A DNA stretch of 60,886 bases. It comes from Candidatus Limnocylindria bacterium (GTDB lineage: Bacteria; Chloroflexota; Limnocylindria; QHBO01). The first letter of the stretch is position 1, and every line of letters begins with the position of its first letter. The stretch covers positions 1 through 60,886 of the forward strand of contig DATBIK010000026.1 in assembly GCA_036556985.1 (NCBI GenBank), given 5' to 3'. The notes beneath the pieces are model-generated. The model searched no databases and was not told the DNA's origin. It saw only the letters and a list, made by a program, of their open reading frames with translations. A program made the translations under genes and the position numbers. Positions 16,012 to 56,177 of the stretch are shown in pieces.

Positions 16012-16083
16012 CTAGAGGACGCCGAGCAGCCAGAGGATCAGAAGGATCAGCAGGATCGTCCCGATGATTCCCAGTCCGAACAT
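16012..16083 (-). CDS. Micro-ORF, 23-aa hydrophobic peptide MFGLGIIGTILLILLILWLLGVL
   Basis: Not in the ORF track because it is too short. ATG at 16083 has GGAGGAAT 5 nt upstream. Paralogous to the peptide at 56103-56177, and the ILLILWLLG motif recalls lmo0937-type small membrane proteins. Confidence 0.55.
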   Translation of the reverse strand: MFGLGIIGTILLILLILWLLGVL

Positions 16084-16148
16084 CCGGATTCCTCCCTGGT
16101 TCGTTCCGTCGTCGGCGGGATGGGTTTCCCGCGTCCACTCGCAGGCAA

Positions 16149-16165
16149 CGCACGACGCGTGCCAA
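16149..16165 (-). promoter_or_regulatory. Sigma-54-type -24/-12 promoter (P1)
   Basis: Minus strand reads TTGGCACGCGTCGTGCG, against consensus YTGGCACGrNNNTTGCW. GG and GC are at the exact consensus spacing. It lies 65 nt upstream of ATG 16083 and just after the surE stop. Confidence 0.55.
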
Positions 16166-16178
16166 CCCGGTCCGACGC

Positions 16179-16976
16179 TCAGGATTCGTCCTCCTCGACC
16201 TCCTCAGGCGGCATCTCGGCCGGCCCCTCGTCGAGCTCCTCGAGCGGGGCGGCGCGCTTCAGCGCGGCGAGGCCGTCGTGATCGGTGACGTCCACGCGCA
16301 GCGGGGTCATCGAGGTGTAGCCGTACCGGACCGCCCACAGGTCGGTATCGGCCTCCGTCTCCTGGATGGGAACGACGGTGAACCAGTAGTGCTGGCGACC
16401 CATCGGGTCCTCGGCCGGGACGATCTTGCCGTCGTACTTCTTGTTCGCCTGCCGCGTCCAGCGCATGCCACGCGGGTGGCGGGGGATGTTCACGTTCACG
16501 AGCTCGAGGCCATCCTTGGGCAGGAGGCAGTCGAGGACCTTCTCGACGTGCGGCTCGAGAGCGGCGAAATCGGGCTCGTCACCGGTCACCGGCGTGCTGA
16601 AGGCGATGCCGCGCACGCCGAACAGCACCGCCTGGCGCGCGGCAGCCACGGTTCCCGAGTGCCACGCCCCGTGGCCCAGGTTCGTGCCGAGGTTGATGCC
16701 GGACACCACGATGTCGACGCGATCCCACTGGAACATGCCGAGCGCCACGCAGTCGGCGGGCGTGCCGTTCACGCGGTACGCCTCCACCCCCAGCTCCTCC
16801 ATGACCGGCGTCCGCTTGTAGGAGAGCGGCCGGAAGGCGGTGATCGAGTGCCCCGCGGCGGACTGCTCGACGTCCGGCGCCACCACCCGGACATCGCCGA
16901 ACTTCGTGGCGGCCCGTGCCAGCGCGGCGATTCCCGGCGAGTAGATGCCGTCGTCGTTCGCGACCAGGATCCTCAT
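16179..16976 (-). CDS. surE: 5'/3'-nucleotidase SurE
   Basis: MRILVANDDGIYSPGI...GINLGTNLG...full-length SurE with an acidic C-terminal tail (EELDEGPAEMPPEEVEEDES). Confidence 0.9.
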   Translation of the reverse strand: MRILVANDDGIYSPGIAALARAATKFGDVRVVAPDVEQSAAGHSITAFRPLSYKRTPVMEELGVEAYRVNGTPADCVALGMFQWDRVDIVVSGINLGTNLGHGAWHSGTVAAARQAVLFGVRGIAFSTPVTGDEPDFAALEPHVEKVLDCLLPKDGLELVNVNIPRHPRGMRWTRQANKKYDGKIVPAEDPMGRQHYWFTVVPIQETEADTDLWAVRYGYTSMTPLRVDVTDHDGLAALKRAAPLEELDEGPAEMPPEEVEEDES

Positions 16977-17021
16977 GGACCGATGCCTCCTGGACCGATG
17001 CCTCCTGGGCCGATGCCTCCT
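16977..17021 (-). repeat. Three tandem copies of a 15-bp SD-containing unit abutting the surE ATG
   Basis: Minus strand reads AGGAGGCATCGGCCC AGGAGGCATCGGTCC AGGAGGCATCGGTCC, followed directly by ATG. Confidence 0.85.
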
Positions 17022-17301
17022 GCAAGTCCCCGGCCCGGTGGGCCACCTGTCCCGTCGGATGGTCCGCCTGGCACTGTCGGGTCCGATGCCCGTCCGGGGA
17101 CAGTGTCGGCGACCCGGAGAGGCCGGACGTCGCGGACCGGGCTCGGGATCCGAAGGGGAACCGGGCTGTGAAGGCGGCGAGGGTCTCTTCGGGCCACGCC
17201 TGTGCGAACGAGGCGAGGGCGGCCGTGGTCGACTGCGGGTTGGCCCGGCCGCCTCGCCGCGTCTGCCGTGGTGCCGGGTCGGCGGTGAAACCCACCCACT
17301 T

Positions 17302-17441
17302 TCACCAGCCGGTGGTGATAACGATCAAGATGTCGCCCCCGAAAGCCGAGAGCGCGCCATTTCTGCCCTGTGTTTCACCACTGCCTGGTCAAATCGGGAA
17401 GAAACGACCATTTCGTGATCGATGTCACCACCTGCTGGTGA
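17302..17441. promoter_or_regulatory. Three TCACCA-N5-TGGTGA inverted repeats (candidate operator array)
   Basis: TCACCAGCCGGTGGTGA at 17302-17318; TCACCACTGCCTGGTCA at 17375-17391; TCACCACCTGCTGGTGA at 17425-17441. The last two are each preceded by CCATTTC 17-18 nt upstream. The array lies in a 494-bp gap between the clpB stop and the surE start where I find no convincing ORF. Confidence 0.5.
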
Positions 17442-17470
17442 ATTCGACACTGTTACAGCGCAGGTTCCGC

Positions 17471-20133
<2,663 letters not shown>

Positions 20134-20134
<1 letters not shown>

Positions 20135-21144
20135 CAGTGCACCTTCCCATCGCTGCGGGGATCGGGCTGCGGGTGGCGGCCGAGCAGCTTGGCCAGCTCC
20201 TCTCGGCGCTCCTCGTCCAGCTCCGGCAGCACGACCCGGGTGCGGACGACGAGGTCGCCCTTCTCCGACGAGCCGCGCTTCGGCAGCCCGCGGCCCTTGA
20301 TGCGGATCTCCTGGCCGTTCTGGGTGTTCGGGCGGATGCGCAGCTTCACGCTCCCCGTGGGCGTGGGGACGCGCACCTCGGCGCCGAGGAGGGCCTCGGC
20401 CAGGGTCAGCGGCAGCTCGGTGACGAGGTCGGCGCCGCGCCGCTCGAAGCGGGGATCGGCCTTCACCTTCACGTTGATGACGAGGTCGCCGGCTCCCGCG
20501 GCCCCGCCCTTCAGGCCGCCGCCGCGCAGCCGGATGCGCGCCCCGTCGGCCACGCCGGCGGGGATCTTGACCTGGAGGCGCCGGCCGTCGACGTTCACCA
20601 TCCGCTCGGCGCCACGCGCCACCTCGGCCAGGGTCACCTCGGCCTGGGCCTCGGCAGTGGCCACCCGTGCGGGACGGGCCGCGCGGCGCTCGCCGGTGCC
20701 GGCGCCGGTCAGGTCGCCGAAGTCGAAGACCTGCTCGAAGCCGGGCTGGGCCGATGATGCGGCGAAGCCCTCGCCGCCGAAGAAGGTCCGGAAGAAGTCG
20801 CTGAAGCCGCCGAGGTCCTCCGGTGACACGCGGCGGTACTCCCAGCGCGTGCCGCCCGGCGCGCCGCCGAAGCCGGCCCAGTCGGTGGCGCCGCCACCGC
20901 CGTAGCCGGCGTGCTCGTACGCCTGCCAGTTGGCGCCGAGCTCGTCGTAGCGCTTCCGCTTCTCCGGGTCGGAGAGGACGGCGTGCGCCTCGTTCGCGTC
21001 CTTGAAGCGCTTCTCGGCGGCGGCGTCGCCGGGGTTGCGGTCCGGATGGAGCTCACGGGCGAGACGGCGATAGGCCTTCTTGATGTCGGCCTGGCTCGCC
21101 GTCTTCGGGATCCCGAGGATCTCGTAGTAGTCCTTGTACTCCAT
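20134..21144 (-). CDS. cbpA: J-domain co-chaperone without zinc finger (CbpA/type II DnaJ-like)
   Basis: [33 protein letters not shown] and a G/F-rich region. No CxxCxGxG repeats. The stop overlaps the clpB ATG (TGATG). Confidence 0.8.
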
Positions 21145-21156
21145 CGGCGCCGCCTG

Positions 21157-23646
<2,490 letters not shown>

Positions 23647-23655
23647 GCCTGTCCT

Positions 23656-24099
23656 TCAGTTCCTTCCGTCGAGCCGCGCCTCGGAACGCTCGTCCGGGGC
23701 ACTCTCCTCGATGAATCGCTCGACATCGTCGGCATCGAACAGGTCGTAGACGCGGATCTTTCCGAGCGCCTCGAGCTGCAGGATCACCTTGACGCCCGCC
23801 AGGTTCACCCCCTGGCGTCGGGTGAGGAAGCGGATGATGCGCACCCGCTGGATATCGGCCTCCGAGTAGAGGCGGAGGTTGTTGCGGCGCTGCGGACAGA
23901 CGAGGCCCTCTTCCTCGTAGATCCGCAGCGTCCGCGGATGCACGCTCGCCAGCTCGGCGGCGATGCTGATGAAGTAGCGCGGCCGGTGCGGGTCGCGGAG
24001 CGAGGTCACTGCCCGCTCCGCGCCACGCGAGCGCCGGCCGCGCGCGTCGGTTCGCTGGGTTCGCCGCTGAGCCGCGAGCTCACGCGGTCGCGTCGCCAT
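23656..24099 (-). CDS. hspR: MerR-family heat-shock repressor HspR
   Basis: YFISIAAELASVHPRTLRIYEEEGLVCPQRRNNLRLYSEADIQRVRIIRFL. An alternative GTG start at 24009 has a GGAG SD. Confidence 0.8.
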   Translation of the reverse strand: MATRPRELAAQRRTQRTDARGRRSRGAERAVTSLRDPHRPRYFISIAAELASVHPRTLRIYEEEGLVCPQRRNNLRLYSEADIQRVRIIRFLTRRQGVNLAGVKVILQLEALGKIRVYDLFDADDVERFIEESAPDERSEARLDGRN

Positions 24100-24571
24100 C
24101 GGTCGATGACTCGACCTGCTTCGGCGCCGCCTTGATATGGATCTGTCGCGGCTTGACCTCCTCGGACTTCGGGATCCTCAGCGTTAGGACGCCGTCCTCG
24201 AAGTTGGCCGTGGCGGCGTCGCCCTGGACCCGGACCGGCAGCTGGAGCTGGCGGTGGAACGAGCCGTAGCGGCGCTCGCGGTAGAGGTACTGGTCGCGCT
24301 CGACCTTCTCGTCCGCCTTGAACTCGCCGCGGATGGAGAGAGTCTGGCCGGTGATGGTGATGTCGACGTCCTCGGCCTTCATGCCCGGCAGGGCGGCGGT
24401 GACGACGATCTCATCGGCGGTCTGGTGCACGTCGAGCGCCGGCGAGGTGCCCTCGCCGTTGTAGGTGCGCAGCGTGAGCGGGCTCACGAACGAGTCCTCG
24501 AACAGGCGGTCCATCGCCTGGCGCAGCGTGACCATCTCGCCGAGTGGGTCGAATCGGGTGATGTTTGCCAT
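24080..24571 (-). CDS. Hsp20/alpha-crystallin small heat-shock protein
   Basis: MANITRFDPLGEM...ALDVHQTADEIVVTAALPGMKAEDVDITI...GVLTLRIPK. ATG 24571 has AGGAG 8 nt upstream, so I prefer it to the track start at 24598. Confidence 0.9.
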   Translation of the reverse strand: MANITRFDPLGEMVTLRQAMDRLFEDSFVSPLTLRTYNGEGTSPALDVHQTADEIVVTAALPGMKAEDVDITITGQTLSIRGEFKADEKVERDQYLYRERRYGSFHRQLQLPVRVQGDAATANFEDGVLTLRIPKSEEVKPRQIHIKAAPKQVESSTDGDATA

Positions 24572-24625
24572 TGAAGTGCTCCTTCGAACCTCCTTCACAA
24601 GCCGGTGAAATCGGACCGTGGCGTT

Positions 24626-24655
24626 ACCCTAAACCCTGACAATGACGCTGTCAAG
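24626..24655 (-). promoter_or_regulatory. hsp20 operon promoter with overlapping HAIR-like inverted repeat
   Basis: Minus strand reads CTTGACAgcgtcatTGTCAGGgtTTAGGGT. TTGACA (-35), a 17-bp spacer and TAGGGT (-10). The inverted repeat CTTGACA-N7-TGTCAGG (24635-24655) has the 7-N7-7 geometry of the HspR operator CTTGAGT-N7-ACTCAAG. Confidence 0.6.
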
Positions 24656-24744
24656 AGTCTTATCACGACCGATGGAGTGGCGGGCTTGCGCTGAGCTCGC
24701 TGCAGCAGGGCAGACATGGCCAGGGATGGCCCGTAGGCTGCGGT

Positions 24745-24880
24745 TGGCCCGATACAGCGGGCCACCGTGAGCGTGAGCGGTGCCGAGTGGCGTCCTTCAT
24801 GCTGCAAGTGGCCCTGCACATCGGGCCGAATCCAGCCAGAAACGACCACCAGGCTGCGTTTGGCCCGATACAGCGGGCCG
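24745..24880 (-). repeat. REP-like palindrome cluster, locus B (inverted relative to A and C)
   Basis: TGGCCCGATACAGCGGGCCA at 24745-24764 and TGGCCCGATACAGCGGGCCG at 24861-24880, 116 bp apart; TGGCCCTGCACATCGGGCC at 24809-24828. The flank CCGTGAGCGTGAGC is the reverse complement of GCTCACGCTCACCG in locus A. Confidence 0.8.
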
Positions 24881-24893
24881 GTCGTGACAGACC

Positions 24894-38350: not shown

Positions 38351-39397
38351 TCATTCCTTGCGGCCCAGGATGCCGTACGGACGGAAGATCAGGACCAGCA
38401 CGAGCAGCGTGAAGGCGACCACGTCGCGCAGCTGGTTGGTGGACGGGACGCCGAACCCCGACAGGAACAGGAACGGACCCACGGACTCGAGCAGACCCAG
38501 GAACAGCCCTCCCAGCATGGCTCCCACGATGTTGCCGATGCCGCCCAGCACGGCCGCGGTGAAGGCCTTGATGCCGGCCAGGAAGCCCATGCTGAACGAC
38601 ACGACGTTGAAGAGGAAGACGTAGAGGATGCCCGCCGCGCCGGCCAGCAGGCCGCCGATGGCGAACGTCGTGGCGATGACCCGGTCGACGTTGATGCCCA
38701 TCATGGCCGCCACGTCCTTGTCCTCGCTCACGGCCCGCATCGCGCGACCGGTGCGTGTGCGCTGGACGAAGATGTAGAGCCCGATCATGAGCAGGACGGC
38801 CGCCACGATGACGACCGCCTGCGTCTTCTGGATGGGGATGCCGAAGATGTCCCAGGTGCCGACCAGGATGTCGATCCGCGGATAGGAGCGCACGCCCGAG
38901 CCGTAGATGCTCCGAACCGTGTACTGGAGGAAGAGTGACGCGCCGATGGCGGTGATCAGCGGGACCAGCCTCGGCGCGCGACGGAGGGGCCGGTAGGCGA
39001 TCCGCTCCAGGAGGACGGCCACGATCATGGAGGTCACCATCGAGACGAGGAGGATGACCGCCAGGCCGAAGAAGGGATTGGCATTGAGGATGCCGGCGTC
39101 GGCGAGCGCCGTGGCGGCGAAGAAGGCGGTGAAGGTGCCCGCCATGAAGACCTCGCCGTGGGCAAAGTTGATCATGAACAGGACGCCGTACACGAGCGTG
39201 TAACCGAGGGCGATGAGTGCGTAGATGGCGCCCTGCGCCAGGCCCACGATGACGAGGCTCCGCCAGCTGTCGAAGCCGAGCAGGCCCTGCGAGAGCGTGG
39301 CGAACGAGCCGGTGACGACGAAGACGACGACGCCGACGCGCAGCCCCCACAGGATGACGTCAACGAGTGATAGGCGCTCCGGGAGCCGCAGGCGCAT
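38351..39397 (-). CDS. livH: Branched-chain amino acid ABC permease LivH-type
   Basis: GLAQGAIYALIALGYTLVYGVLFMINFAHGE... Confidence 0.85.
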   Translation of the reverse strand: MRLRLPERLSLVDVILWGLRVGVVVFVVTGSFATLSQGLLGFDSWRSLVIVGLAQGAIYALIALGYTLVYGVLFMINFAHGEVFMAGTFTAFFAATALADAGILNANPFFGLAVILLVSMVTSMIVAVLLERIAYRPLRRAPRLVPLITAIGASLFLQYTVRSIYGSGVRSYPRIDILVGTWDIFGIPIQKTQAVVIVAAVLLMIGLYIFVQRTRTGRAMRAVSEDKDVAAMMGINVDRVIATTFAIGGLLAGAAGILYVFLFNVVSFSMGFLAGIKAFTAAVLGGIGNIVGAMLGGLFLGLLESVGPFLFLSGFGVPSTNQLRDVVAFTLLVLVLIFRPYGILGRKE

Positions 39398-44362: not shown

Positions 44363-44391
44363 GAAGGCCGGTCCCGCTGGGACCGGCCTTC
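44363..44391. terminator. Bidirectional hairpin terminator between convergent genes
   Basis: 13-bp perfect stem GAAGGCCGGTCCC-gct-GGGACCGGCCTTC. Confidence 0.6.
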
Positions 44392-44413: not shown

Positions 44414-45082
44414 CTAAGCCTTCTCGTCCCCCTCGGTGGCGGCATCGATCGTCTCCGGGGCGGGAACCTCGCCCTCTGCCGGCTCCGCCTCCTCCGCCGG
44501 GCTGCCGTTCGTGCCTTCGCGCTGGAAGAGCGGTACCCAGTCGCCCGCCTCGTCGCGGGCGCGCGTGGCGGCATCCCGCGCCTTGTCGGCGATCTCGTCA
44601 CGCATTTCGCGCCCCGGCTTGGGGGTGGTCAGCATCGCGACGATGGCGCCGGCCGCCGCCCCGACGAGCAGCCCGAGGAAGAACGCCAGCCAGTGGCGCC
44701 GCTCGCGCTGCTTGCGGATGCCGAGCCGCGCAGCCGCGTCCTCGGCGAGCTGCTGGCCTGCGGGAATTGCGGCACCGGCCGCGCTCATCGCCACCGTCCG
44801 CCGCTTCCACAGGTCGCGAAGCGCCGGGCTCAGCTCCTTCGTCCAGGTGCGCCGGGACCACTTCATCGCGTCCTTGCCGGCGCGGCGGGCAGCCTTCTCG
44901 GCATCCCTGCGCTGCGGCTCGGAGTCGTGCCAGGCATCGCTGGCGCGCGCCGAAACGGTCTCGGTCGCCTCCGCCACCGCGGCGGCGAGCTCGCGACCGC
45001 GCCGCGCGATCTGGTCGGTCACGTCTGCCTCGAGCATCCTCTCGACGACGGATCGGACCCGCGTGGAGACCTCATCGGCCAT
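44414..45082 (-). CDS. YtxH-like general stress protein (single TM, helical hydrophilic domains)
   Basis: FLGLLVGAAAGAIVAMLTTPKPGREMRDEIADKARD matches the YtxH signature. ATG 45082 has GAGGAGG 5 nt upstream. Confidence 0.7.
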   Translation of the reverse strand: MADEVSTRVRSVVERMLEADVTDQIARRGRELAAAVAEATETVSARASDAWHDSEPQRRDAEKAARRAGKDAMKWSRRTWTKELSPALRDLWKRRTVAMSAAGAAIPAGQQLAEDAAARLGIRKQRERRHWLAFFLGLLVGAAAGAIVAMLTTPKPGREMRDEIADKARDAATRARDEAGDWVPLFQREGTNGSPAEEAEPAEGEVPAPETIDAATEGDEKA

Positions 45083-45115: not shown

Positions 45116-45132
45116 TGCAGAAAGTATGCCAC
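45116..45132 (-). promoter_or_regulatory. Sigma-54-type -24/-12 promoter (P5) upstream of the ytxH-like gene
   Basis: Minus strand reads GTGGCATACTTTCTGCA. GG and GC are at consensus spacing. It lies 33 nt upstream of ATG 45082. Confidence 0.6.
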
Positions 45133-45279: not shown

Positions 45280-45285
45280 CAGCCG

Positions 45286-46395: not shown

Positions 46396-46406
46396 GCCTG
46401 GAGCGA

Positions 46407-46676: not shown

Positions 46677-47038
46677 ACCTGCGCGCCGTCGGCTGCGCTG
46701 TCGTCGGCGTGGCCGTTTTCGTGGGCCTCGGCGTTTGGGGCCTGTCGCTCGCCTTCCAGGACGCGGAGGGCTGCCCGCCCTCGCTCCAGTGGGAGGACCG
46801 CGCATACGTCGCGGAGGGCACCCCCGCCCCGTCGCCAGACCTCGGACCGGGCGATCCGGTGTACATCGGCTCCACCTTCATGGGCCCCATCACCCGCCGC
46901 ACGTACGGACCGGCGGGCAGCTCGCCATCGACCGATGCGGCCGACCGCCCGTCGCTGATCGCGCTCGACTGTGCGGACGGCACGTTCCAGGTCTATCGCT
47001 GGGACGACGCGCCGACCGGCCCCGACGCCTCGCCGTGA
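46673..47038 (+). CDS. Membrane-anchored hypothetical protein (121 aa)
   Basis: N-terminal TM segment (AVVGVAVFVGLGVWGLSLAF). 4-nt overlaps with both neighbouring genes. Confidence 0.5.
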   Translation: MNLRAVGCAVVGVAVFVGLGVWGLSLAFQDAEGCPPSLQWEDRAYVAEGTPAPSPDLGPGDPVYIGSTFMGPITRRTYGPAGSSPSTDAADRPSLIALDCADGTFQVYRWDDAPTGPDASP

Positions 47039-47985: not shown

Positions 47986-47991
47986 CGCGGC

Positions 47992-49008
47992 CTAGTCGCG
48001 AATGGCGCCCCAGCCGGCATCGGTCCCGAACAGGCGCTCGTGGGTGGCCAGGGCGTAGCGGTCCGTCATGCCGGCGATGTAGTCGGCGACCTGCACGACC
48101 GGCGGCGCCTCGTGCTGGCGGTAGGTGTCCGGGATCTCGTCGGGGTGCGCGAGGTGGTGCTCCACGAGGTCGTGGAGGATGGCGATCGCCCGCTCCTGGC
48201 GGACCCTCTGCTCGGGCGACTGGTAGACGCGGGCGAACATGAAGTCGCGCAGCTCGTGCATGACGGCCAGGGTGTCCTCGTCCATGCGCACCGCCCCGGC
48301 GCCCAGCGAGTGCTCGATGACGGCCTCGATCATCTCGCCGATCCAGGCGCGCCCGGGCTCCCCGAAACGCGCGACGACGCCCGCCGGGAAGTCGGACGGC
48401 GCGAGCACCCCGGCCCGCATGGCGTCGAGCGCGTCGTGGGTCAGGTACGCGATGCGGTCCGCGTAGCGCACGGTGTGCGCCTCCGGCGTCGCCGGCGGTG
48501 GGGTGATCTTCCACGAGTGGGCACGGATCCCGTCGCGCACCTCCCAGCTCAGGTTGAGGTCCTCGAGCACCTCGAAGATGCGGACGCTCTGCGCGGCGTG
48601 GTGCCAGCCGTCGGGCGGGAAGTACGGCGACAGCGCCTCCTCGCCGGTATGCCCGAACGGGGTATGGCCGACGTCGTGGCCCAGCGCGATCGCCTCGGCC
48701 AAAGGTTCGTTGAGCGATAGCCCGGCCGCCAGCGAGCGGGCGATCTGCGACACCTGCAGGGTGTGGGTCAGGCGGGTGATGAAGTGGTCCCCGTCGGGGT
48801 GCAGGAAGACCTGGGTCTTGTGCTTCAGCCGGCGGAAGGCCTTGGCGTGCACGATCCGGTCACGGTCGCGCTCGAACGCGGTGCGATACGGGTCGGGCGC
48901 CTCCTCCCTGGCCCGGCCGCGGCTCTGCGCCGAGCGGGTGGCGGAGGGGCTCAGCCGCTCCTCCTCCGCCTCGCGGGCACCCCGGTCGCGCCGGATGAAG
49001 GCCTGCAT
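47992..49008 (-). CDS. dgt: dGTP triphosphohydrolase-like HD-domain protein
   Basis: FERDRDRIVHAKAFRRLKHKTQVF...DHFITRLTHTLQVSQIAR...LGHDVGHTPFGH. ATG at 49008. Confidence 0.85.
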   Translation of the reverse strand: MQAFIRRDRGAREAEEERLSPSATRSAQSRGRAREEAPDPYRTAFERDRDRIVHAKAFRRLKHKTQVFLHPDGDHFITRLTHTLQVSQIARSLAAGLSLNEPLAEAIALGHDVGHTPFGHTGEEALSPYFPPDGWHHAAQSVRIFEVLEDLNLSWEVRDGIRAHSWKITPPPATPEAHTVRYADRIAYLTHDALDAMRAGVLAPSDFPAGVVARFGEPGRAWIGEMIEAVIEHSLGAGAVRMDEDTLAVMHELRDFMFARVYQSPEQRVRQERAIAILHDLVEHHLAHPDEIPDTYRQHEAPPVVQVADYIAGMTDRYALATHERLFGTDAGWGAIRD

Positions 49009-49051
49009 GGACCGATGATGCCCGACCCATGAAGCTCGATGCCGTGTGAAG

Positions 49052-49239
49052 TGGCCTGCTGTATCGGGCCATATCGCGCCAGAGTCGACTTTCAGGCCGT
49101 GAATGGCCTGCTGTACGGGGCCACCTGGAGCACGAGGCGCGCCAATTGGCACACCTCACGCTCGCGGTGGCCTGCTGTACCAGGCCAAACTGCGCCGGAG
49201 ATCGGGCTCAGGCGTCAAATGGCCCGCTGTATCGGGCCA
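49052..49239 (+). repeat. REP-like palindrome cluster, locus C (two tandem 116-bp units, four hairpins)
   Basis: TGGCCTGCTGTATCGGGCCA at 49052-49071; TGGCCTGCTGTACGGGGCCA at 49104-49123; TGGCCTGCTGTACCAGGCCA at 49168-49187; TGGCCCGCTGTATCGGGCCA at 49220-49239. Spacing is 52/64/52 bp. Confidence 0.8.
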
Positions 49240-49262
49240 GACCCGGCCGCGCGTGTGATGGG

Positions 49263-49424
49263 TCAGTCGTCGTCCTTCTTCGTCTCGCCCTTCTCGGCGC
49301 GCTCCTTGTTCACGGTGCGGGCCGCGCGCTCCTCCGCCTCGTCCTTGCTCACGCCGCGATCCTCGTACGAGTCCTTGATGTGCTCGTACTGTCGCTCGCG
49401 CTTGTCGCTCCAACCTTCCGGCAT
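49263..49424 (-). CDS. Small hydrophilic protein, 53 aa (MPEGWSDKRERQYEHIKDSYEDRGVSKDEAEERAARTVNKERAEKGETKKDDD)
   Basis: C-terminal segment of track ORF 49263..49952. ATG 49424 has an AGGGGAG SD. The sequence recalls a conserved small stress-associated family whose name I cannot give with confidence. Confidence 0.6.
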   Translation of the reverse strand: MPEGWSDKRERQYEHIKDSYEDRGVSKDEAEERAARTVNKERAEKGETKKDDD

Positions 49425-49467
49425 GTCCGTACTCCCCTGCGTCCTCGGACCGGCATGGACCGACGTC

Positions 49468-49484
49468 AGCAGCGCGCGTGCCAC
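49468..49484 (-). promoter_or_regulatory. Sigma-54-type -24/-12 promoter (P3)
   Basis: Minus strand reads GTGGCACGCGCGCTGCT. It lies 43 nt upstream of ATG 49424. Confidence 0.55.
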
Positions 49485-49488
49485 GCCG

Positions 49489-49505
49489 GTGGCCCGCCGC
49501 TTGCA
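49489..49505 (+). promoter_or_regulatory. Sigma-54-type -24/-12 promoter (P4)
   Basis: GTGGCCCGCCGCTTGCA. It lies 46 nt upstream of ATG 49552 and is back to back with P3. Confidence 0.55.
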
Positions 49506-49551
49506 ACGAAGGTCCGCGGAACAACGAAGCAATCCCGCATAGGAGCACGCA

Positions 49552-50016
49552 ATGAGCACCGTCGAGAAGTCAATCGACGTCAACGTCCCGATCCGCACCG
49601 CATACGACCAGTGGACCCAGTTCGAGGAATTCCCGCGCTTCATGGAGGGCGTGAAGTCGGTCACCCAGGCCGATGACACCCATCTCCGCTGGGTCGCCGA
49701 GGTCGCCGGCCAGGAGAAGGCATGGGACGCCGAGATCACTGAGCAGCATCCGGACGAGCGGGTCGCGTGGACGAGCACGAGCGGCGCGCGCAACGCCGGC
49801 GTCGTGACGTTCCACCGGCTCGACGACAACACCACGCGGGTCATGCTCCAGCTGGATGCCGACCCCGAGGGCCTCGTGGAGAACGTCGGCGATGCGCTCG
49901 GCTTCCTCGACCGCCGCGTCGAAGGCGACCTCGAGCGCTTCAAGGAGTTCATCGAGTCGCGCGGCGTCGAGACCGGCGCCTGGCGCGGCGAGGTCGAGAG
50001 CCCCTCGGCCCGCTGA
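49552..50016 (+). CDS. SRPBCC-superfamily (cyclase/dehydrase-like) protein
   Basis: VEKSIDVNVPIRTAYDQWTQFEEFPRFMEGVKSV...RVAWTSTSG...VVTFHRL. Confidence 0.75.
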   Translation: MSTVEKSIDVNVPIRTAYDQWTQFEEFPRFMEGVKSVTQADDTHLRWVAEVAGQEKAWDAEITEQHPDERVAWTSTSGARNAGVVTFHRLDDNTTRVMLQLDADPEGLVENVGDALGFLDRRVEGDLERFKEFIESRGVETGAWRGEVESPSAR

Positions 50017-50029
50017 GGAGGATGCCTCC

Positions 50030-50434
50030 ATGGATGATCGGGAGCGCCCCGAGCAGCTCGGGGGAATGACCGGAGCGACCGGACGACTCACGCCCGACGA
50101 CCCGGACGGCGCGTTCGTCCCGGCCGAGACGCGCGAGGTCACGGACGCCGAGGCCGCTCGCGACATCACCGCGGCGGTCCATCGCCGCCGCGAGGACCGC
50201 GTGGCGGAGGAGCCGGACGAACCCGGCAACCTCCGAGCGCGCGGGGAGGCGACGCCGCCGAACGACCGCGACGGCGGCTACGGATCGGAGCACGGCCTGG
50301 CCGGCGACGATCCTGCCTACCGCGAGGAGGAGCACCTCCCGCCGCCACCGCTCGACCCGGCGCCCGGGCACGCGCCGGGAGCGACCCGGATCGGCGGTGA
50401 CGAGGTCCGCTCCCCGGAGGACGAGCACTTCTAG
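50030..50434 (+). CDS. Acidic, probably disordered protein (134 aa)
   Basis: ATG 50030 has GAGGAGG 8 nt upstream. Asp/Glu/Pro/Gly/Arg-rich with no recognisable domain. Confidence 0.45.
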   Translation: MDDRERPEQLGGMTGATGRLTPDDPDGAFVPAETREVTDAEAARDITAAVHRRREDRVAEEPDEPGNLRARGEATPPNDRDGGYGSEHGLAGDDPAYREEEHLPPPPLDPAPGHAPGATRIGGDEVRSPEDEHF

Positions 50435-50464
50435 GCAGTCGCCACGCCGGCGCGCGGCGGGGTC

Positions 50465-51463
50465 GTGCTAAGGTGGCCGGCTTTGGAACCGATCACCGAC
50501 GAGCCGATCCGCCGCGGGCCAACCCCCGCGCGTCCGCACACCGAGCGCGAACGCCTCGTCGCCGCGGCCGAGACGCTGCTCGTCACCTTCCTGTGGGCCA
50601 CGTCCTGGGTGCTCATCAAGGTCGGGCTCAACGACCTCGACCTCCAGCCGGTGTCGTTCGCCGGCCTGCGCTACGTCCTGGCCGCCGCGATCCTGGCGCC
50701 GCTCGGCTGGCGCGCGATCAGGGGCGTGCATCGCCGCGGGGAGCGCGGTCTCGACCGGCGGCTGCTGCTCCATGTCGGTGCGCTGGGACTGTTCCTGTAC
50801 GCCCTGGCCCAGGGCGCCCAGTTCGCAGCGCTGGCGGTCCTGCCGGCGGCGAGCGTTGGCCTCGTGCTGGCCTCGATCCCGATCTGGGTCGGCGCGGTGG
50901 CCTGGGCCCGCGGCGAGGAGGCTGCCAGCCGTTGGCAGGTGGTGGGCATCGGCGTCCTGGTGGCCGGCGTGGCGCTGTACTTCGGCGGCTTCGACCCGGG
51001 CACGTCCGGCTGGATCGGCCTGGGCGCGGCAGTGCTGTGCGCCGCCGCCTCGACGATCGGCCAGCACCTGTCCCGCGACCTGAACCGCGACGCGCAGGCC
51101 CGCCTGGGCGGGCCCATCGGCCTGACCGCCCTGTCGATGGCGGTCGGCAGCGTCCTGCTGCTGGGGGTTGGCGTGTGGCTGGAGGGCTGGCCACGGCTCG
51201 ACCTGGCCGGGTGGCTCATCGTGGGGTGGCTGGCGGCGGTGAACACCGCCTTCGCGTTCACGCTCTACAACCGCACGCTCCGGGTCCTCACCGCGGTGGA
51301 GTCGAGCGTCATCGTCAACCTGCTGCTCGTCATGGTCGCCGCCATGGCCTGGACCTTCCTTGGCGAGGCGCTCGACGTGCGGCAGATCGCCGGGCTGGGG
51401 CTGGCGACCGTAGGTGTCCTCGTCGTGCAGATCGCCCCGCGCTGGGAGCGGCGCGCCGCCTAG
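50465..51463 (+). CDS. EamA/DMT-family transporter
   Basis: Ten TM helices with duplicated EamA halves (FLWATSWVLIKVGL..., ...AFAFTLYNRTLRVL). The start is uncertain (GTG 50465). Confidence 0.75.
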   Translation: MLRWPALEPITDEPIRRGPTPARPHTERERLVAAAETLLVTFLWATSWVLIKVGLNDLDLQPVSFAGLRYVLAAAILAPLGWRAIRGVHRRGERGLDRRLLLHVGALGLFLYALAQGAQFAALAVLPAASVGLVLASIPIWVGAVAWARGEEAASRWQVVGIGVLVAGVALYFGGFDPGTSGWIGLGAAVLCAAASTIGQHLSRDLNRDAQARLGGPIGLTALSMAVGSVLLLGVGVWLEGWPRLDLAGWLIVGWLAAVNTAFAFTLYNRTLRVLTAVESSVIVNLLLVMVAAMAWTFLGEALDVRQIAGLGLATVGVLVVQIAPRWERRAA

Positions 51464-52359
51464 GCTGCGGCCACGTCCGCGATCTCGGGCTGCTCCACGA
51501 CCTCGCCGCGGACCCGTGCCTCCGCGCCCTCGATGATCCGCCGCCGCAGCCAGCCGGACAGGGTGTCGACCAGGATCGTGGCGACCACGACCACGATCAC
51601 CGCCGTTCCGGCGAGCGAGTAGCGGTGGAAGGCGATCGTCTGCTGGAGCTGGAACCCGATGCCTCCCGCCCCGACCACGCCGAGGATGGCGGCAGCCCGG
51701 ATGTTGATCTCGAAGCGGTAGAGCCAGAACGCGATGATCTCGGGGAGCACCTGGGGCAGGACGCCCCAGCGCTGGACCTGGAGCGGACGCGCGCCCGTCG
51801 CCCGCGCGGCCTCGACCGGACCGGGGTCGATGCCCTCGACGACCTCGGCCGTCAGCTTTCCGAGGGTGCCGACCGAGTGGAGGCCGATGGCAAGCGCGCC
51901 GGCCACCGGCCCGAGCCCGGCGATGGGGATGAAGATGGCGATGGCGAGCACCACCTCGGGGAAGGCGCGGATCGCGTTGAGCACCTGGCGGATGAGGTTC
52001 GAGACGAGCCCGGAGGACACGTTCTTCGCCGCGAAGAAGCCGAGCGGCAGCGACAGGATCGCCCCGATCACGGTGCCCACCCAGGCGATCTCGAGCGACT
52101 GGATCATGCCGCCGGAGGTCGTGAGCTCGAAGGCCCCGTCCTCGACCGTGAAGCCGATGGCGTCGTCAAGGTAGGCCCAGTCCGGGCCTGGATCGAGGAA
52201 CATCTCGTAGAAGAGGCGCCCGAGACCGCCGGGCAGCTCCAGGATCTCCGCCGGGTCGATTCCAATCGTCAGTGCCGCCCAGGCGACGAGGAGCGCCGCC
52301 CCGAGGAGCGCCAGGTGGCGCTTCAGGCTTGAGGGACGCTCCGGCCGGGCGACGGTCAC
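51460..52359 (-). CDS. phnE: Phosphonate ABC transporter permease
   Basis: PhnE-like sequence (EIAWVGTVIGAILSLPLGFFAAKN...EAARATGA...). Confidence 0.8.
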   Translation of the reverse strand: MTVARPERPSSLKRHLALLGAALLVAWAALTIGIDPAEILELPGGLGRLFYEMFLDPGPDWAYLDDAIGFTVEDGAFELTTSGGMIQSLEIAWVGTVIGAILSLPLGFFAAKNVSSGLVSNLIRQVLNAIRAFPEVVLAIAIFIPIAGLGPVAGALAIGLHSVGTLGKLTAEVVEGIDPGPVEAARATGARPLQVQRWGVLPQVLPEIIAFWLYRFEINIRAAAILGVVGAGGIGFQLQQTIAFHRYSLAGTAVIVVVVATILVDTLSGWLRRRIIEGAEARVRGEVVEQPEIADVAAA

Positions 52360-53165
52360 ACGAGCCTCCGGCGGAGCCAGATGGAGATCGTCTCGATGAT
52401 GAACACGAACACGAACAGCTCGACCACGATGACGGAGACGTTGCTCCAGTTGAAGAAGCGGTACTGGAGGAAGATGAGGTTGCCGATGCCTCCGGCGCCG
52501 ACGATGCCGAGGACCGCCGAGGCGCGGATGTTCAGCTCGAAGGTGTAGAGCGAGTAGGCGACGTAGTTCGGCAGCACCTGGGGCAGGACCGACCAGCGCA
52601 CGGTCTGCATCCGGTTCGCACCACCGGCGCGCGCGGCCTCGATCGGCCCGGTGTCGACGCCGTCGACCGTCTCCGACAGGAGCTTGGCCACGACGCCGAT
52701 GTTGAACATGACGAGCGCCGCCACTCCGGCGAGCGGCCCGATGCTGACGGCGGCGACGAAGATGAGGGCGTAGAGGAAATCGGGGATGGCCCGTACGACG
52801 CTGAGCAGGCTGCGGTCGGCCAGGAAAACGGCGAGGTTCGGCGCCGTCACGCGTGAGGCCAGGAACGCGACCGGCAGCGCGACCGCGCAGCCGATGACCG
52901 ACGCCACGACCGCGATCTTGAACGTTTCGAGCATGGGGTCGACGGTGCGCGGCAGGAACTCCCAGTTCGGGTCCAGGAGCTCGCCGAAGATCCCGGCACC
53001 GCGGGTGATGCTGTCGGCCAGGGCCCCGATGTCGAGCCCGATGCCGAACGGCTCGAACAGCGCCGCCCAGGTGATGACGAGGAAGGCGACGATTCCGAGC
53101 GGGACGACCGGCGAGGGTCGCGGCTTCGCCGGGCGCGCGGTGGCCGTGCCGGCGGGAAGGCTCAT
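52356..53165 (-). CDS. phnE: Phosphonate ABC transporter permease (second copy)
   Basis: Paralogue of the gene at 51460-52359 (...EAARAGGANRMQTVRWSVLPQVLP...). Confidence 0.8.
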   Translation of the reverse strand: MSLPAGTATARPAKPRPSPVVPLGIVAFLVITWAALFEPFGIGLDIGALADSITRGAGIFGELLDPNWEFLPRTVDPMLETFKIAVVASVIGCAVALPVAFLASRVTAPNLAVFLADRSLLSVVRAIPDFLYALIFVAAVSIGPLAGVAALVMFNIGVVAKLLSETVDGVDTGPIEAARAGGANRMQTVRWSVLPQVLPNYVAYSLYTFELNIRASAVLGIVGAGGIGNLIFLQYRFFNWSNVSVIVVELFVFVFIIETISIWLRRRLV

Positions 53166-53947
53166 ATGGCGACCGCGGGAGCCGCCTCGCCCATGACGTC
53201 GTCGGCGGTCAGGGAGCGACCGTAGATGTCCCGGAACACGTGCTCGTCGGCCTGCGCGCCGGTTCCGTCGTAGACGAGCTCACCGGCCCGCAGCCCGATG
53301 ATCCGCTGACCGTAGACCTTGGCGAGGTCGAGGAAGTGGAGGTTCACGATGGTCGTGATGCCCAGATCGCGGTTGATGCGCTGCAGGTCGCGCATGATCA
53401 CGTGGCTGGTCGGGGGATCGAGGCTGGCGACCGGCTCGTCGGCGAGGAGGATGGTCGGCTCCTGGGCTAGTGCCCGCGCGATCCCGACGCGCTGCTGCTG
53501 TCCGCCGGACAGGTTGGCGGCGCGGACGTAGGCCTTCTCCACGATGCCCACCCGTTCGAGGGCGCGCATCGCGACCTCGACGTCGTCAGGCCGATACCAT
53601 CCGATCAGGGAGCGCAGCGTGCCGGTGCTGTGCAGCCGCCCCATGAGGACGTTGTTCAGCACGCTGGTGCGCTTCACGAGGTTGAAGGTCTGGAAGATCA
53701 TTCCGATCTTCGAGCGCAGCTGGCGCAGCTGGCGAGCGTTCGCGGTCCGCACGCTCACGTCGTCGATGGTGACGTCGCCGCTCGTGAGCGGGACGAGGCC
53801 GTTGATGGCGCGAATGAGCGTGGACTTGCCGGCGCCGGAGAGCCCGACGATGACCATCATCTGACCGTCGGGGATCTCGAGCGTCAGGTCCTTCAGGGCG
53901 TGGACGCCGCCGGGATAGGTGACCGAGGCATTCTCGAAGCGAATCAT
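53162..53947 (-). CDS. phnC: Phosphonate ABC transporter ATP-binding protein
   Basis: GLSGAGKSTLIRAINGL, LSGGQQQRVGIARAL and LLADEPVASLDP motifs. Confidence 0.85.
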   Translation of the reverse strand: MIRFENASVTYPGGVHALKDLTLEIPDGQMMVIVGLSGAGKSTLIRAINGLVPLTSGDVTIDDVSVRTANARQLRQLRSKIGMIFQTFNLVKRTSVLNNVLMGRLHSTGTLRSLIGWYRPDDVEVAMRALERVGIVEKAYVRAANLSGGQQQRVGIARALAQEPTILLADEPVASLDPPTSHVIMRDLQRINRDLGITTIVNLHFLDLAKVYGQRIIGLRAGELVYDGTGAQADEHVFRDIYGRSLTADDVMGEAAPAVAI

Positions 53948-54010
53948 CGGTTCAGGTGGTCCGGATACGAAGAGGGGCGAGCCCTGCGGCCCGCCCCTCC
54001 CCTGCGAGGA

Positions 54011-55051
54011 TCAGCCCTCGTAGCCGAGCTCGTCGACCGCCTGGCGCACGAGCTCCAGGCCCTCGATGTTCGGCTCGGTGAACGCGGTGATCTGGTAGAT
54101 CGACTCGAGGACGGCCGCGCCCTCCTCGGTGTCCGCGTACGCCATGAGCGCGTCCTTGATCTGCTGGACGAGGTCGTCCGGCAGATCGCCCGAGACGGCG
54201 ATGCCGTCGTTCGGGATCTCCGGCCCGTAGGCGAAGACGACGACGTTGTTCTCGAGGTCGCACTCAGTGGTGGCGATGGTCCGCGCGTCGTCGAATGACA
54301 CGCCGACCTCGGCATCGCCCTCGCACACGGCGATCACCGAACCGTCATGGCTGCCGGCAAAGATCGGGTTGATGTCCGTCTCCGGATTCATCCCCTGGGT
54401 CAGGAACACGGTCGCCGGGAAGATGTACCCCGACGAGGAGGTCTGCTCCACGAACGAGACGGTCGTGCCCGCCTCGACGTTGGCGAGCGCCTCGAGGCCG
54501 ATGGGGCCCTCCGGCGTGTCCTCGTTGGCGCGGGCCGTGCCATTGCAGTTGAGGAAGGTGACCTCTTCGTCACTGATGACGCGGGTGTTCTCCTCAGGCG
54601 CCGAGACGGTGCAGTACTTGTCCGGGTCGTTCGTGAAGAACTGGGTGTGGTACGTGCCGCTGCCGAAGCGCTCGGACTGCAGGATGATCTCGGCGCCGGC
54701 GCGGTCTACGGCCTGCAGCATGCCGTACGGTGGCAGCGCGCCGATGTGGGCCTGGCCGGTCTCCATGGCGGTCACCAGGCCGGTGTAGTCGTTGGACACG
54801 ATGCCGGTGACCGGGATGCCCAGCTCGGTGGTCAGGTAGTCGGCCAGCGGCTGGATGTCCTCCACCAGCTGGCCGGCCTCGCTGGACGGCACGAAGCCGA
54901 TCACGAGCTCATCGGGCACCGCGGCCTCGGACGGCGCCATGGACTCCGCCTGGGACGCCGCTTCGCTCTCCGCGGGCGATGCGCCGGTGCCGCATGCGGT
55001 GATCACAAGGGCCAGCACGGCCATCACGGCGAGTGGTCGGAAGTACGTCAT
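54011..55051 (-). CDS. phnD: Phosphate/phosphite/phosphonate ABC transporter substrate-binding lipoprotein
   Basis: Lipobox VITAC. LVIGFVPSSEAGQL...YTGLVTAMETGQAHIGALPP. Confidence 0.8.
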   Translation of the reverse strand: MTYFRPLAVMAVLALVITACGTGASPAESEAASQAESMAPSEAAVPDELVIGFVPSSEAGQLVEDIQPLADYLTTELGIPVTGIVSNDYTGLVTAMETGQAHIGALPPYGMLQAVDRAGAEIILQSERFGSGTYHTQFFTNDPDKYCTVSAPEENTRVISDEEVTFLNCNGTARANEDTPEGPIGLEALANVEAGTTVSFVEQTSSSGYIFPATVFLTQGMNPETDINPIFAGSHDGSVIAVCEGDAEVGVSFDDARTIATTECDLENNVVVFAYGPEIPNDGIAVSGDLPDDLVQQIKDALMAYADTEEGAAVLESIYQITAFTEPNIEGLELVRQAVDELGYEG

Positions 55052-55208
55052 CTAGCTCCTCCAAGGACCCGGCGTCCCCCCTTTGCGGCCGGGGTCGAAC
55101 CCTCACGGTCACCGACGCACGGCCGCTGCCGGCTTGGGCAGCGTCATGGGGAGCCGTGCGGACCGGTGCAGGCCCGCATGATAGCGGACCGATCCAGTAG
55201 CGGGACGT

Positions 55209-55284
55209 TGGCGCGCCGGACAGGATTCGAACCTGCGACCTTCGGCTCCGGAGGCCGACGCTCTATCCACTGAGCTACCGGCGC
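55209..55284 (-). tRNA. tRNA-Arg (anticodon CCG)
   Basis: The minus strand folds by eye as a cloverleaf: GCGCCGG-TA-GCTC-AGTGGATA-GAGC-G-TCGGC-CTCCGGA-GCCGA-AGGTC-GCAGG-TTCGAAT-CCTGT-CCGGCGC-G-CCA. The CCA end is encoded. Confidence 0.9.
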
Positions 55285-55298
55285 GCGGGAGCGCCAGT

Positions 55299-55934
55299 CT
55301 AGCGCGCGGCGCCTCGCAGCGCTCCCGTGAGCTCGTCGTTGGCCGGGTCGAACACGGCGCACTGCACCGAATGGTCGCCCGCATCCCAGCCCTCACGTGT
55401 GGGCTGGAACCAGAAGACGTCCAAAGCGGATTCGCTGTACGAACGACCGATGTATTCAGCGAACGCGGGAAGGCAGTTCTCGTCGAGCCAGGTGACGAAG
55501 GCCGCGTCCGCCGGATAGGTCGCCGAGGCCACGGTCCCGATGTGCATCAGCTCGAACTCGTGCGGTTCGGTACACGGGCGGGCCGTGATCTCGTCGACCG
55601 CCTCGTCCTCGTCGAGCTCACCCTTCAGATCGAAACAGTCGCCCACGCGAAGGTCCGAGATGGCGAGATTGCCGGATCGGCTGATGCTGCCGTCGTCATC
55701 GCGCTGGGCATTGAAGATCAGCCCGCCGACCGAGACGGCGACCACGAGGATCACCCACCAGAATCGGCCAAGGCGCTGGATCCAGCGGCCTCCCGGGGAG
55801 GTCTCTTCGGCGGCCACGGGGAAGGGCCCGTCCTCGGCCGCCGGCTGCTCTCCGCGGGGCAGCCCGCAGGACTGGCAGGCGGCGAAGGCCTCCTCGTTCG
55901 ACGCGAAGCAGCGCAGGCAGACCCATCGGGCCAT
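55299..55934 (-). CDS. Zinc-ribbon + TM + septum-formation-family domain protein
   Basis: N-terminal WVCLRCFASNEEAFAACQSCG, one TM helix, then VGDCF...RPCTEPHEFEL typical of the Septum_form domain. ATG 55934 has a GGAGGG SD. Confidence 0.65.
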   Translation of the reverse strand: MARWVCLRCFASNEEAFAACQSCGLPRGEQPAAEDGPFPVAAEETSPGGRWIQRLGRFWWVILVVAVSVGGLIFNAQRDDDGSISRSGNLAISDLRVGDCFDLKGELDEDEAVDEITARPCTEPHEFELMHIGTVASATYPADAAFVTWLDENCLPAFAEYIGRSYSESALDVFWFQPTREGWDAGDHSVQCAVFDPANDELTGALRGAAR

Positions 55935-56038
55935 GGGCGATTCCCTCCGTGGCACCCCAAGCGGGCGTGCCGAAGGCTAGGCGCGGCTGTGCTCGGCGGA
56001 AACGGGACTTTCGGTTGAGGCCGATCGGCGAGCAGGCG

Positions 56039-56055
56039 CTGGCACGCCTAGTGCA
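56039..56055 (+). promoter_or_regulatory. Sigma-54-type -24/-12 promoter (P2)
   Basis: CTGGCACGCCTAGTGCA matches 15 of the 17 consensus positions. It lies 47 nt upstream of ATG 56103. Confidence 0.6.
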
Positions 56056-56102
56056 TTTCCTCGTGTCGGGGAACAACACGACCCGCATACAGGAGGAATG
56101 CC

Positions 56103-56177
56103 ATGTACTGGGGTGGAGGGATCATTGGACTGATCCTGCTGATCCTGCTGATCCTGCTGCTCACGGGGAACCTGTAA
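56103..56177 (+). CDS. Micro-ORF, 24-aa hydrophobic peptide MYWGGGIIGLILLILLILLLTGNL
   Basis: Not in the ORF track. AGGAGGAAT lies 4 nt upstream. Paralogue of 16012-16083. Contains 3 x 9-bp CTGATCCTG. Confidence 0.55.
   Translation: MYWGGGIIGLILLILLILLLTGNL

Follow-up and report, generated by a model that had tools for sequence, protein, structure and literature searches.

Putative sigma-54 promoters ahead of small stress-type genes suggest a conserved regulon in Limnocylindria and related Chloroflexota

The established roles of sigma-54 concern nitrogen metabolism, flagella, particular catabolic operons and some dedicated stress systems such as Psp and Rtc. YtxH and CsbD are classical families of the SigB regulon in Bacillus, and the promoter type of SigB and SigF is GTTT-N-GGGTA. 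A CtcC-sigma-54 system operates in Chlamydia, and autoactivation of rpoN, the gene for sigma-54, is known from Rhodobacter capsulatus and Rhizobium etli. Here we describe five sigma-54-type (-24/-12) promoter sequences, P1 to P5, in a 60.9-kb stretch of approximately 70% G+C from Candidatus Limnocylindria bacterium (contig DATBIK010000026.1; hereafter the window), a member of an abundant, uncultured class of soil and freshwater bacteria within the Chloroflexota. The sites stand ahead of what would be five separate short transcription units, namely pep23, pep24, ytxH, hyp53, and an SRPBCC gene with a gene for an acidic protein. On the grounds of sequence and conservation, we regard it as highly probable that P1 to P5 function as sigma-54 promoters and make up a conserved regulon, and the fuller reading, in which these promoters and this regulon also have a stress-type role, appears likely. 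The promoters and the genes behind them are as follows (aa, amino acids).

16149..16165, minus strand: P1, TTGGCACGCGTCGTGCG, sigma-54-type -24/-12 promoter, beginning 14 nucleotides (nt) past the surE stop codon
16012..16083, minus strand: pep23, a 23-aa hydrophobic peptide, MFGLGIIGTILLILLILWLLGVL
45116..45132, minus strand: P5, GTGGCATACTTTCTGCA, sigma-54-type promoter ahead of ytxH
44414..45082, minus strand: ytxH, YtxH-like membrane-anchored protein of 222 aa (Pfam YtxH, E = 7.5e-13)
49468..49484, minus strand: P3, GTGGCACGCGCGCTGCT, sigma-54-type promoter ahead of hyp53, back-to-back with P4
49263..49424, minus strand: hyp53, a 53-aa hydrophilic protein, gene-called in Joint Genome Institute (JGI) contigs and with an orthologue in L004 (L numbers denote loci and contigs of other genomes)
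49489..49505, plus strand: P4, GTGGCCCGCCGCTTGCA, sigma-54-type promoter ahead of the SRPBCC gene
49552..50016, plus strand: SRPBCC (polyketide-cyclase-fold) protein of 154 aa (Pfam Polyketide_cyc, E = 6.4e-21)
50030..50434, plus strand: acidic protein of 134 aa (33 D+E versus 15 K+R), syntenic in L005 and JGI contigs
56039..56055, plus strand: P2, CTGGCACGCCTAGTGCA, sigma-54-type promoter ahead of pep24
56103..56177, plus strand: pep24, a 24-aa hydrophobic peptide, MYWGGGIIGLILLILLILLLTGNL

The content of this set overlaps with that of the SigB regulon of Bacillus and the SigF/SigB regulons of Actinomycetota (YtxH, CsbD), and like them it comprises many small, separately transcribed genes; orthologues of its SRPBCC protein stand behind GTTT-N-GGGTA promoters in Actinomycetota, and self-activation of the sigma gene is predicted in Chloroflexota relatives. 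It differs from them in the unrelated sigma-54 family, which would require an ATP-hydrolysing activator, in having -24/-12 rather than -35/-10 elements and no partner-switching anti-sigma module, and in leaving out the heat-shock genes. The pairing of an NtrC-type activator with sigma-54 for an adaptive or developmental programme, rather than for a single catabolic operon, resembles the Rrp2-RpoN-RpoS pathway of Borrelia burgdorferi and the CtcC-sigma-54 system of Chlamydia. In Borrelia, however, sigma-54 acts mainly via one promoter, that of rpoS, and RpoS reads the stress genes, whereas the sites described here stand directly on small stress genes; a further difference from both systems is that the activator gene of Chloroflexota relatives lies near rpoN, with a membrane-protein gene in between. 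A sigma-54-type promoter before rpoN, implying positive feedback, is shared by R. capsulatus (nifU2-rpoN), R. etli (rpoN2) and, as predicted, the Chloroflexota relatives, but the former two are tied to nitrogen fixation and NifA, whereas the Chloroflexota cluster has no nif context. In the phage-shock (membrane stress) system of Enterobacteria, the activator PspF has no receiver domain and is controlled by the binding of PspA, whereas the activator described here is a response regulator and no PspA-family gene is among the targets. The PspF/sigma-54 system is likewise a sigma-54-dependent stress response with small membrane-associated products (Francke et al. 2011, PMC3162934). In the full-text literature on sigma-54 in Chloroflexota or Limnocylindria, YtxH, CsbD, DUF3309 and general stress, we found neither a description of such a regulon nor a report of sigma-54 directly reading a set of classical general-stress genes.

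The five 17-nt sequences named in a preliminary description of this DNA are present exactly, at the claimed coordinates and on the claimed strands. Each is intergenic, directed towards its gene and followed at 34-66 nt (33-65 nt in that description) by a start codon with a GGAGG-type Shine-Dalgarno sequence, and no sigma-70-type consensus lies ahead of any of the five genes. The GG and GC dinucleotides are exactly 10 nt apart in all five sites, which depart from the extended consensus TGGCAC-N5-TTGCW at one or two positions each, mostly by G or C for T at -14. The non-coding share of the window is at most 11.8% according to a gene map based on third-position G+C and Pfam. Strict TGGCAC-N6-TGC matches occur three times against 0.49 expected, and all three are intergenic, correctly oriented and among the sites noted earlier; the loose pattern TGGC-N8-TGC is not discriminating, with 30 matches in the window, the majority in coding sequence. 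With an approximate general sigma-54 matrix, based on the published consensus, six of the ten best matches in the window are non-coding (binomial estimate, P ~4e-4), and P1 to P5 are five of these. The sixth (49146-49162) corresponds to the additional repeat-embedded match of the preliminary description; it is indeed a non-coding top match, but it lacks the TGC of the -12 element. A second matrix, trained solely on sites of other genomes to avoid circularity, was run over approximately 122,000 window positions and placed P2 (23.3 bits), P1 (21.7 bits) and P4 (16.5 bits) at ranks 1 to 3, with P3 (10.7 bits) at rank 5 and P5 (10.1 bits) at rank 8; the mean maximum of the shuffle control was 13.8 bits. 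High-scoring sigma-54-like matches also occur inside genes, at 39078-39094 (plus strand, antisense in livH) and 19830-19846 (minus strand, sense in clpB). In E. coli, sigma-54 sites within genes are a known phenomenon. The -24 elements of P3 and P4 (49468-49505) form an inverted repeat, GTGCCAC-GCCG-GTGGCC; the gap between the two sites is 4 nt in the window, and in L004 the distance from one -24 element to the other is approximately 10 nt. Two sigma-54 holoenzymes could hardly occupy P3 and P4 simultaneously.

The conservation of the sites between species carries the argument further. For the peptides, a species-representative genome collection was searched with a degenerate DNA pattern for the core G-I-I-G-x-ILLILLIL, which returned 27 loci, 20 of them encoding pep23 or pep24 and mostly labelled Limnocylindria or Chloroflexota. 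Every peptide locus with enough upstream sequence has TGGCA(C/T)-N6-TGC 52-85 nt upstream of the ATG, with TGGCAC exact at 18 of 19 loci. The P1 element is kept in L081 and L094 before a pep23 that is 100% identical to that of the window, as is the pep23 of L099. In an alignment of the pep24 upstream regions (16 species, 141 columns), TGGCAC and TGCA are the only invariant blocks, to which the single base ahead of the ATG is added, and the flanks around the promoter cannot be aligned. The P5 form GTGGCATACTT-NN-TGCAC recurs upstream of the YtxH orthologues of L114 (54% amino-acid identity), L091 and L093, between diverged flanks. P3 has counterparts in L004 (CAGGCACGGCTTCTGCA, before the hyp53 orthologue) and in L103 (GCGGCACGGCTGATGCA, on the opposite strand of the intergenic sequence), and the divergent back-to-back layout of P3 and P4 with GGCACG-N4-(C/A)TGCA recurs in both at a different spacing. 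The P4 motif, TGGC[CGA]N-N5-TTGC, precedes SRPBCC orthologues at 11 Chloroflexota loci (L001-L006, L020, L070, L091, L100 and L103) and also occurs at SRPBCC loci of Methylomirabilota/Rokubacteria. Since each of the five sites is kept at the orthologous position while its flanks vary, all of them pass a phylogenetic-footprint test.

These data bear on the possibility that the motifs are chance G+C-rich matches or sites of another DNA-binding protein. The base composition of the window, the abundance of the loose pattern in coding sequence and the scores of P3 and P5 below the shuffle maximum are what such an explanation would predict, and the peptide sites, which have GTGCA for TTGCA at -12, are partly palindromic, with an imperfect GCAC-N5/6-GTGC inverted repeat that a different protein might recognise. 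Yet in as many as 16 species the sites persist at the orthologous location between varying flanks, with constant orientation and distance to the start codon; non-palindromic variants (TGGCCC...TTGCA, TGGCAT...CTGCA) have only the sigma-54 positions in common, and a sigma-54 activator is encoded in the window. We therefore consider chance or another protein the most improbable of the explanations discussed here.

The gene families point to the role that sigma-54-driven transcription of these units may have. The preliminary description had assigned two of the downstream genes to YtxH and SRPBCC, and Pfam confirmed both. JGI gene calls start ytxH at a GTG 18 nt upstream, which gives 228 aa; a genome scan with the YtxH protein returned one locus only, its matches being dominated by a low-complexity peptide pattern. 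The nearest relatives of the SRPBCC protein (76-83% identity) belong to Candidatus Limnocylindria and unclassified Chloroflexota metagenome-assembled genomes (MAGs), in keeping with the housekeeping proteins, which are 89-95% identical to contigs of Limnocylindria or unclassified Chloroflexota MAGs (PurH shows 93% identity with that of MAG DATADC01, SMAG_U6740); near-identical strains are present in JGI metagenomes. The acidic protein, probably co-transcribed with the SRPBCC gene, and hyp53 have no match in Pfam or NCBIfam.

Among SRPBCC orthologues of Actinomycetota, a GGGTA -10 box, in many cases preceded by GTTT at a distance of 13-18 nt, is found at 19 of 37 loci, compared with 2 of 29 loci in Chloroflexota for the box, and the sigma-54 motif shows the reversed pattern (8 of 29 Chloroflexota loci). 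Orthologues of one gene thus have promoters of unrelated classes in the two neighbouring phyla, which is the strongest support for the earlier suggestion that this organism may drive from sigma-54 promoters a set of genes comparable to the SigB stress regulon; the conservation of all five sites, the gene families and the presence of rpoN beside homologues of the activator support it as well. A promoter of this type also stands before csbD, adjoining a homologous activator gene, in Oscillochloris sp. ZM17-4, which is in culture. Families of general stress regulons are represented by YtxH, by CsbD in Oscillochloris and by the SRPBCC orthologues behind GGGTA in Actinomycetota. Directly upstream of the Oscillochloris csbD promoter (L117, ~11770-11840) lies a long perfect palindrome of tandem ATTGCAG heptamers, which could terminate transcription of the upstream gene or serve as an array of binding sites for an activator. 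A gene for an MBL-fold metallo-hydrolase has CTGGCACG-N5-GTGCGACC directly upstream, with a very short leader, in L086 (minus strand, 5433) and L097 (plus strand, 5981); it is a further candidate member of the regulon, and the window has no such site before a gene of this type. Sigma-54-type sites were also seen before a DUF2383 (PA2169-like) gene in a Burkholderiales MAG (L080, ~1599) and, in Methylomirabilota/Rokubacteria MAGs (L031, ~2042 and ~2957; L025, ~2942), before SRPBCC genes and a lipoprotein-like gene rich in Gly. Judging by these sites, the association of small stress proteins with sigma-54 may extend past the Chloroflexota.

The likeliest regulator is encoded near the start of the window.

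338..1912, minus strand: NtrC-type response-regulator activator with REC, sigma-54 AAA+ and HTH_8 domains and phospho-acceptor Asp55

Its Pfam matches are Response_reg (E = 2.1e-33), Sigma54_activat (E = 1.6e-71) and HTH_8 (E = 3.1e-14). An activator with a GAFTGA-type loop had been predicted here; the sigma-54 AAA+ activator is present, but its loop reads GSFTGA (nt 1235-1252). GSFTGA is a conservative variant of GAFTGA and is found in all of the nine Chloroflexota activator homologues examined except that of Anaerolineales L132, which has GAFTGA. No histidine kinase gene adjoins the activator gene in the window or in the rpoN clusters of relatives, which makes the activator an orphan regulator. 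Its closest homologues outside Limnocylindria are rpoN-linked activators with 55-60% identity. In a Chloroflexota MAG (L118), a full-length sigma-54 gene lies 1.2 kb downstream of an activator 60% identical to that of the window, and an Anaerolineales MAG has a full-length sigma-54 gene beside an activator. An E. coli RpoN sequence served as the probe, and its matches were confirmed by Pfam (AID, CBD, DBD); a protein search yielded over 100 RpoN sequences from Chloroflexota, with identities of 66-100%. All nine RpoN contigs examined (L195-L200, L213-L215) have the order activator, 114-117-aa membrane protein, rpoN. Sigma-54-type sites precede rpoN, the membrane-protein gene or both in L118, L195-L197, L213 and L214, from which positive feedback is predicted in these relatives. 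The regions noted for this cluster are 8343-9560 in L118, 9460-10000 in L195 and L196, 9445-10000 in L197, 4307-4800 in L213 and 4122-5090 in L214, and the sites before the membrane-protein gene lie within the 3'-terminal part of the activator gene. The cluster is followed on its 3' side by argG-argH in L213 and L214 and by argG in L118. No Limnocylindria label occurs among the member names of the RpoN protein clusters, and the activator protein has no exact match in public assemblies. A metagenome scan with the unique C-terminus of the activator, meant to extend the sequence past the left edge of the window, returned only short contigs of relatives (identity at most 82%), none of which carries rpoN. 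Sigma-54 and its activators have been reported in some Chloroflexi (Francke et al. 2011, PMC3162934).

The sites could also be real sigma-54 promoters of a narrower programme, such as a Psp-like envelope or membrane response or an NtrC-like response to nitrogen or carbon limitation. The majority of the products are embedded in the membrane or anchored to it (pep23, pep24, YtxH and the 114-117-aa protein of the rpoN cluster), matching the cell-exterior theme of Francke et al. 2011 (PMC3162934); the best NCBIfam matches of the activator are AtoC, NtrC and ZraR, and the heat-shock and usp genes of the window have no such intergenic sites. However, the motif stands before no gene of nitrogen assimilation or transport in the window, which does contain the liv and phn transporter operons; SRPBCC, CsbD, hyp53 and the acidic protein are soluble and do not belong to the envelope; and the Actinomycetota orthologues stand behind promoters of the SigB/SigF, that is, general-stress type. 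A narrower programme thus appears unlikely to us, and we favour a stress-type regulon.

The peptides pep23 and pep24 are two ultra-conserved peptides of 23-24 aa that gene callers have overlooked; pep24, for instance, is absent from the JGI gene calls. It is identical in 15 of 16 species, and I or V replaces W at position 3 at two loci. Across the 16 species 15 of its codons vary, 14 of them by synonymous change only, which identifies pep24 as a real protein-coding gene under strong purifying selection. Against Pfam DUF3309 (PF11752), pep24 scores 21.6 bits (E = 2.4e-4; cut-off 22.3 bits) over model positions 28-50 of 50, and pep23 gives a weak match of 16.0 bits (E = 0.014) over positions 31-50 of 50. 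As both are sub-threshold and cover the C-terminal half only, we speak of resemblance to DUF3309, not of membership. A gammaproteobacterial 52-aa DUF3309 protein ends in GGIIGTILLILLILFLMGRI, to which the peptides are alike, but pep23 and pep24 consist of the C-terminal half only, with one membrane helix. In many genomes pep24 comes after a tRNA gene that lies on the opposite strand. Hairpins lie on the 3' side of both peptide genes and of ytxH.

15945..15972, minus strand: G+C-rich hairpin 3' of pep23, likely a terminator
44363-44391: hairpin 3' of ytxH
56206..56236, no strand assigned: conserved hairpin 3' of pep24, resembling a bidirectional terminator common to pep24 and a convergent small-RNA candidate

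A consensus terminator scan passed over the pep23 hairpin because it has no T run. The small-RNA candidate of approximately 150 nt (56206-56352, minus strand) is convergent to pep24 and has a predicted promoter at 56387-56358 (minus strand), which reads TTGACC-N18-TATCAT in the window; across species a TTGACC -35 element, a variable spacer of 17-18 nt and a TATNNT -10 element are conserved. Its transcribed part is almost invariant, it adjoins pep24 in 16 of the species examined, where the two have the terminator hairpin in common, and it matches no Rfam family. In this lineage of 70% G+C, pep24 retains G+C-poor codons (GGT, ATT, GGA) in most of the 16 species, and its synonymous sites are far more conserved than those of adjoining genes. 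This pattern hints at an additional constraint at the RNA level.

Such an arrangement raises the question of whether pep24, and perhaps pep23, is a type I toxin with the convergent small RNA as its antitoxin, the loci then being selfish or dormancy modules. A hydrophobic peptide gene and a convergent predicted small RNA with a common terminator have the layout of such a pair, similar to that of the Fst/RNAII (par) locus of plasmid pAD1, and the unusual conservation of synonymous sites in pep24 would fit it. However, pairing between the RNA and the pep24 mRNA beyond the terminator is no better than with shuffled RNA (fraction 0.33), pep23 has no conserved neighbour, and the peptides resemble the C-terminal half of DUF3309, which is a widespread chromosomal family. 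Moreover, both genomes in which both loci were recovered (the window and MAG DATADC01, L085/L099) carry one pep23 and one pep24 at fixed syntenic positions, and such single copies are unlike typical multi-copy type I toxins. We consider a toxin-antitoxin function very unlikely, and membership of the peptides in the putative sigma-54 regulon the better explanation.

Several observations nevertheless weigh against a sigma-54-driven stress regulon. By score alone, P3 and P5 are non-significant, so that their case rests on cross-species conservation. About two thirds of the Chloroflexota SRPBCC loci have no sigma-54 motif, and any role in stress is conjectural for pep23, pep24, hyp53 and the acidic protein. 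No sigma-54-type intergenic site was found at the usp gene of the window or at its heat-shock cluster, hsp20-merR (HspR-like)-lon-dnaJ-clpB (17471-24598, minus strand), which is presumably under MerR/HspR-type control; the sole high-scoring match in these genes is the sense-strand one inside clpB. Since the heat-shock genes have no such promoters, the regulon would comprise a subset of stress genes rather than being a complete SigB equivalent. With regard to the sigma factor, rpoN was not found in the 60.9-kb window and was not recovered for its genome or for any MAG labelled Limnocylindria, and on Limnocylindria-type contigs it does not follow the activator gene. The lineages with the rpoN cluster are distant relatives of the window organism (Lon 56%, activator 55-60% identical), so that an rpoN gene in this genome is an inference, which we consider very strong in view of the activator and the conserved -24/-12 elements. 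Finally, no shared enhancer motif (upstream activating sequence) was detected within the window or across approximately 29 promoter regions by a k-mer method that can miss degenerate sites; the k-mers shared between promoters or species were only the promoter itself, coding sequence and a tRNA gene. The back-to-back position of P3 and P4 and the abutment of P1 on surE leave scant room for a classical upstream enhancer. Given these varied contexts, the activator may bind inside neighbouring genes or downstream, use degenerate sites, or act with little DNA specificity.

Taking these points together, we propose the following hypothetical course of events for a regulon that the class Limnocylindria would have in common with related Chloroflexota, in which (i) sigma-54 RNA polymerase would be parked as a closed complex on TGGCAC-N5-(T/G/C)TGCA; (ii) an AAA+ enhancer-binding protein, most likely the orphan NtrC-type regulator of the window (338-1912), would be switched on by phosphorylation of Asp55 upon a signal and open the complex; and (iii) the five units would yield small peptides of the membrane together with small proteins that are hydrophilic or membrane-anchored. 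In sister Chloroflexota, where activator, small membrane-protein gene and rpoN form one cluster, the sigma-54-type sites of rpoN would add a positive feedback loop. As such families are run by SigB/SigF-type factors in Firmicutes and Actinomycetota, the regulon is most likely a stress, starvation or dormancy response placed on sigma-54. More tentatively, and as a proposal that we would not yet call probable, sigma-54 might be the general stress or dormancy sigma factor of Limnocylindria and allied Chloroflexota, possibly also of Methylomirabilota, with one orphan activator, self-activation of rpoN and direct transcription of CsbD-, YtxH-, SRPBCC- and DUF3309-type genes in the role of SigB/SigF.

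Other elements of the window adjoin the activator gene or the promoters. A c-di-GMP-II riboswitch (6045-6129, minus strand; 56.4 bits versus a cut-off of 53.5) lies upstream of an HD_5 (HD-GYP-type) gene (4344-5798), downstream of which, all on the minus strand, follow a DUF5317-MFS fusion gene (2402-4447) and then the activator gene. The MFS gene upstream of the activator gene was compared with the one upstream of the rpoN-linked activator gene of L214 and is not orthologous to it. REP-like (repetitive extragenic palindrome-like) intergenic repeats, GGCC.GCTGTA.C.GGCC, occupy positions 1-337, 24746-24880 and 49053-49240. Bases 1-337, downstream of the activator gene, were considered as the membrane-protein gene that precedes rpoN in relatives, which was rejected as they consist of these repeats. 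The repeats were also rejected as a lineage marker, as they occur solely in the window and in near-identical JGI strains and not in other relatives.

In summary, if the more tentative of these proposals is true, Limnocylindria and related Chloroflexota would run a general stress response on the enhancer-dependent sigma-54 mechanism, in the role that SigB/SigF has in Firmicutes and Actinomycetota. The very tight off-state of this mechanism could matter for genes that are harmful if expressed during growth. If confirmed, the switch of orthologous stress genes from one promoter and sigma class to an unrelated one between neighbouring phyla would be a clear case of regulon rewiring. The idea is open to testing in relatives that are in culture, Oscillochloris among them, and its confirmation would provide a first handle on the control of stress and dormancy in Limnocylindria.

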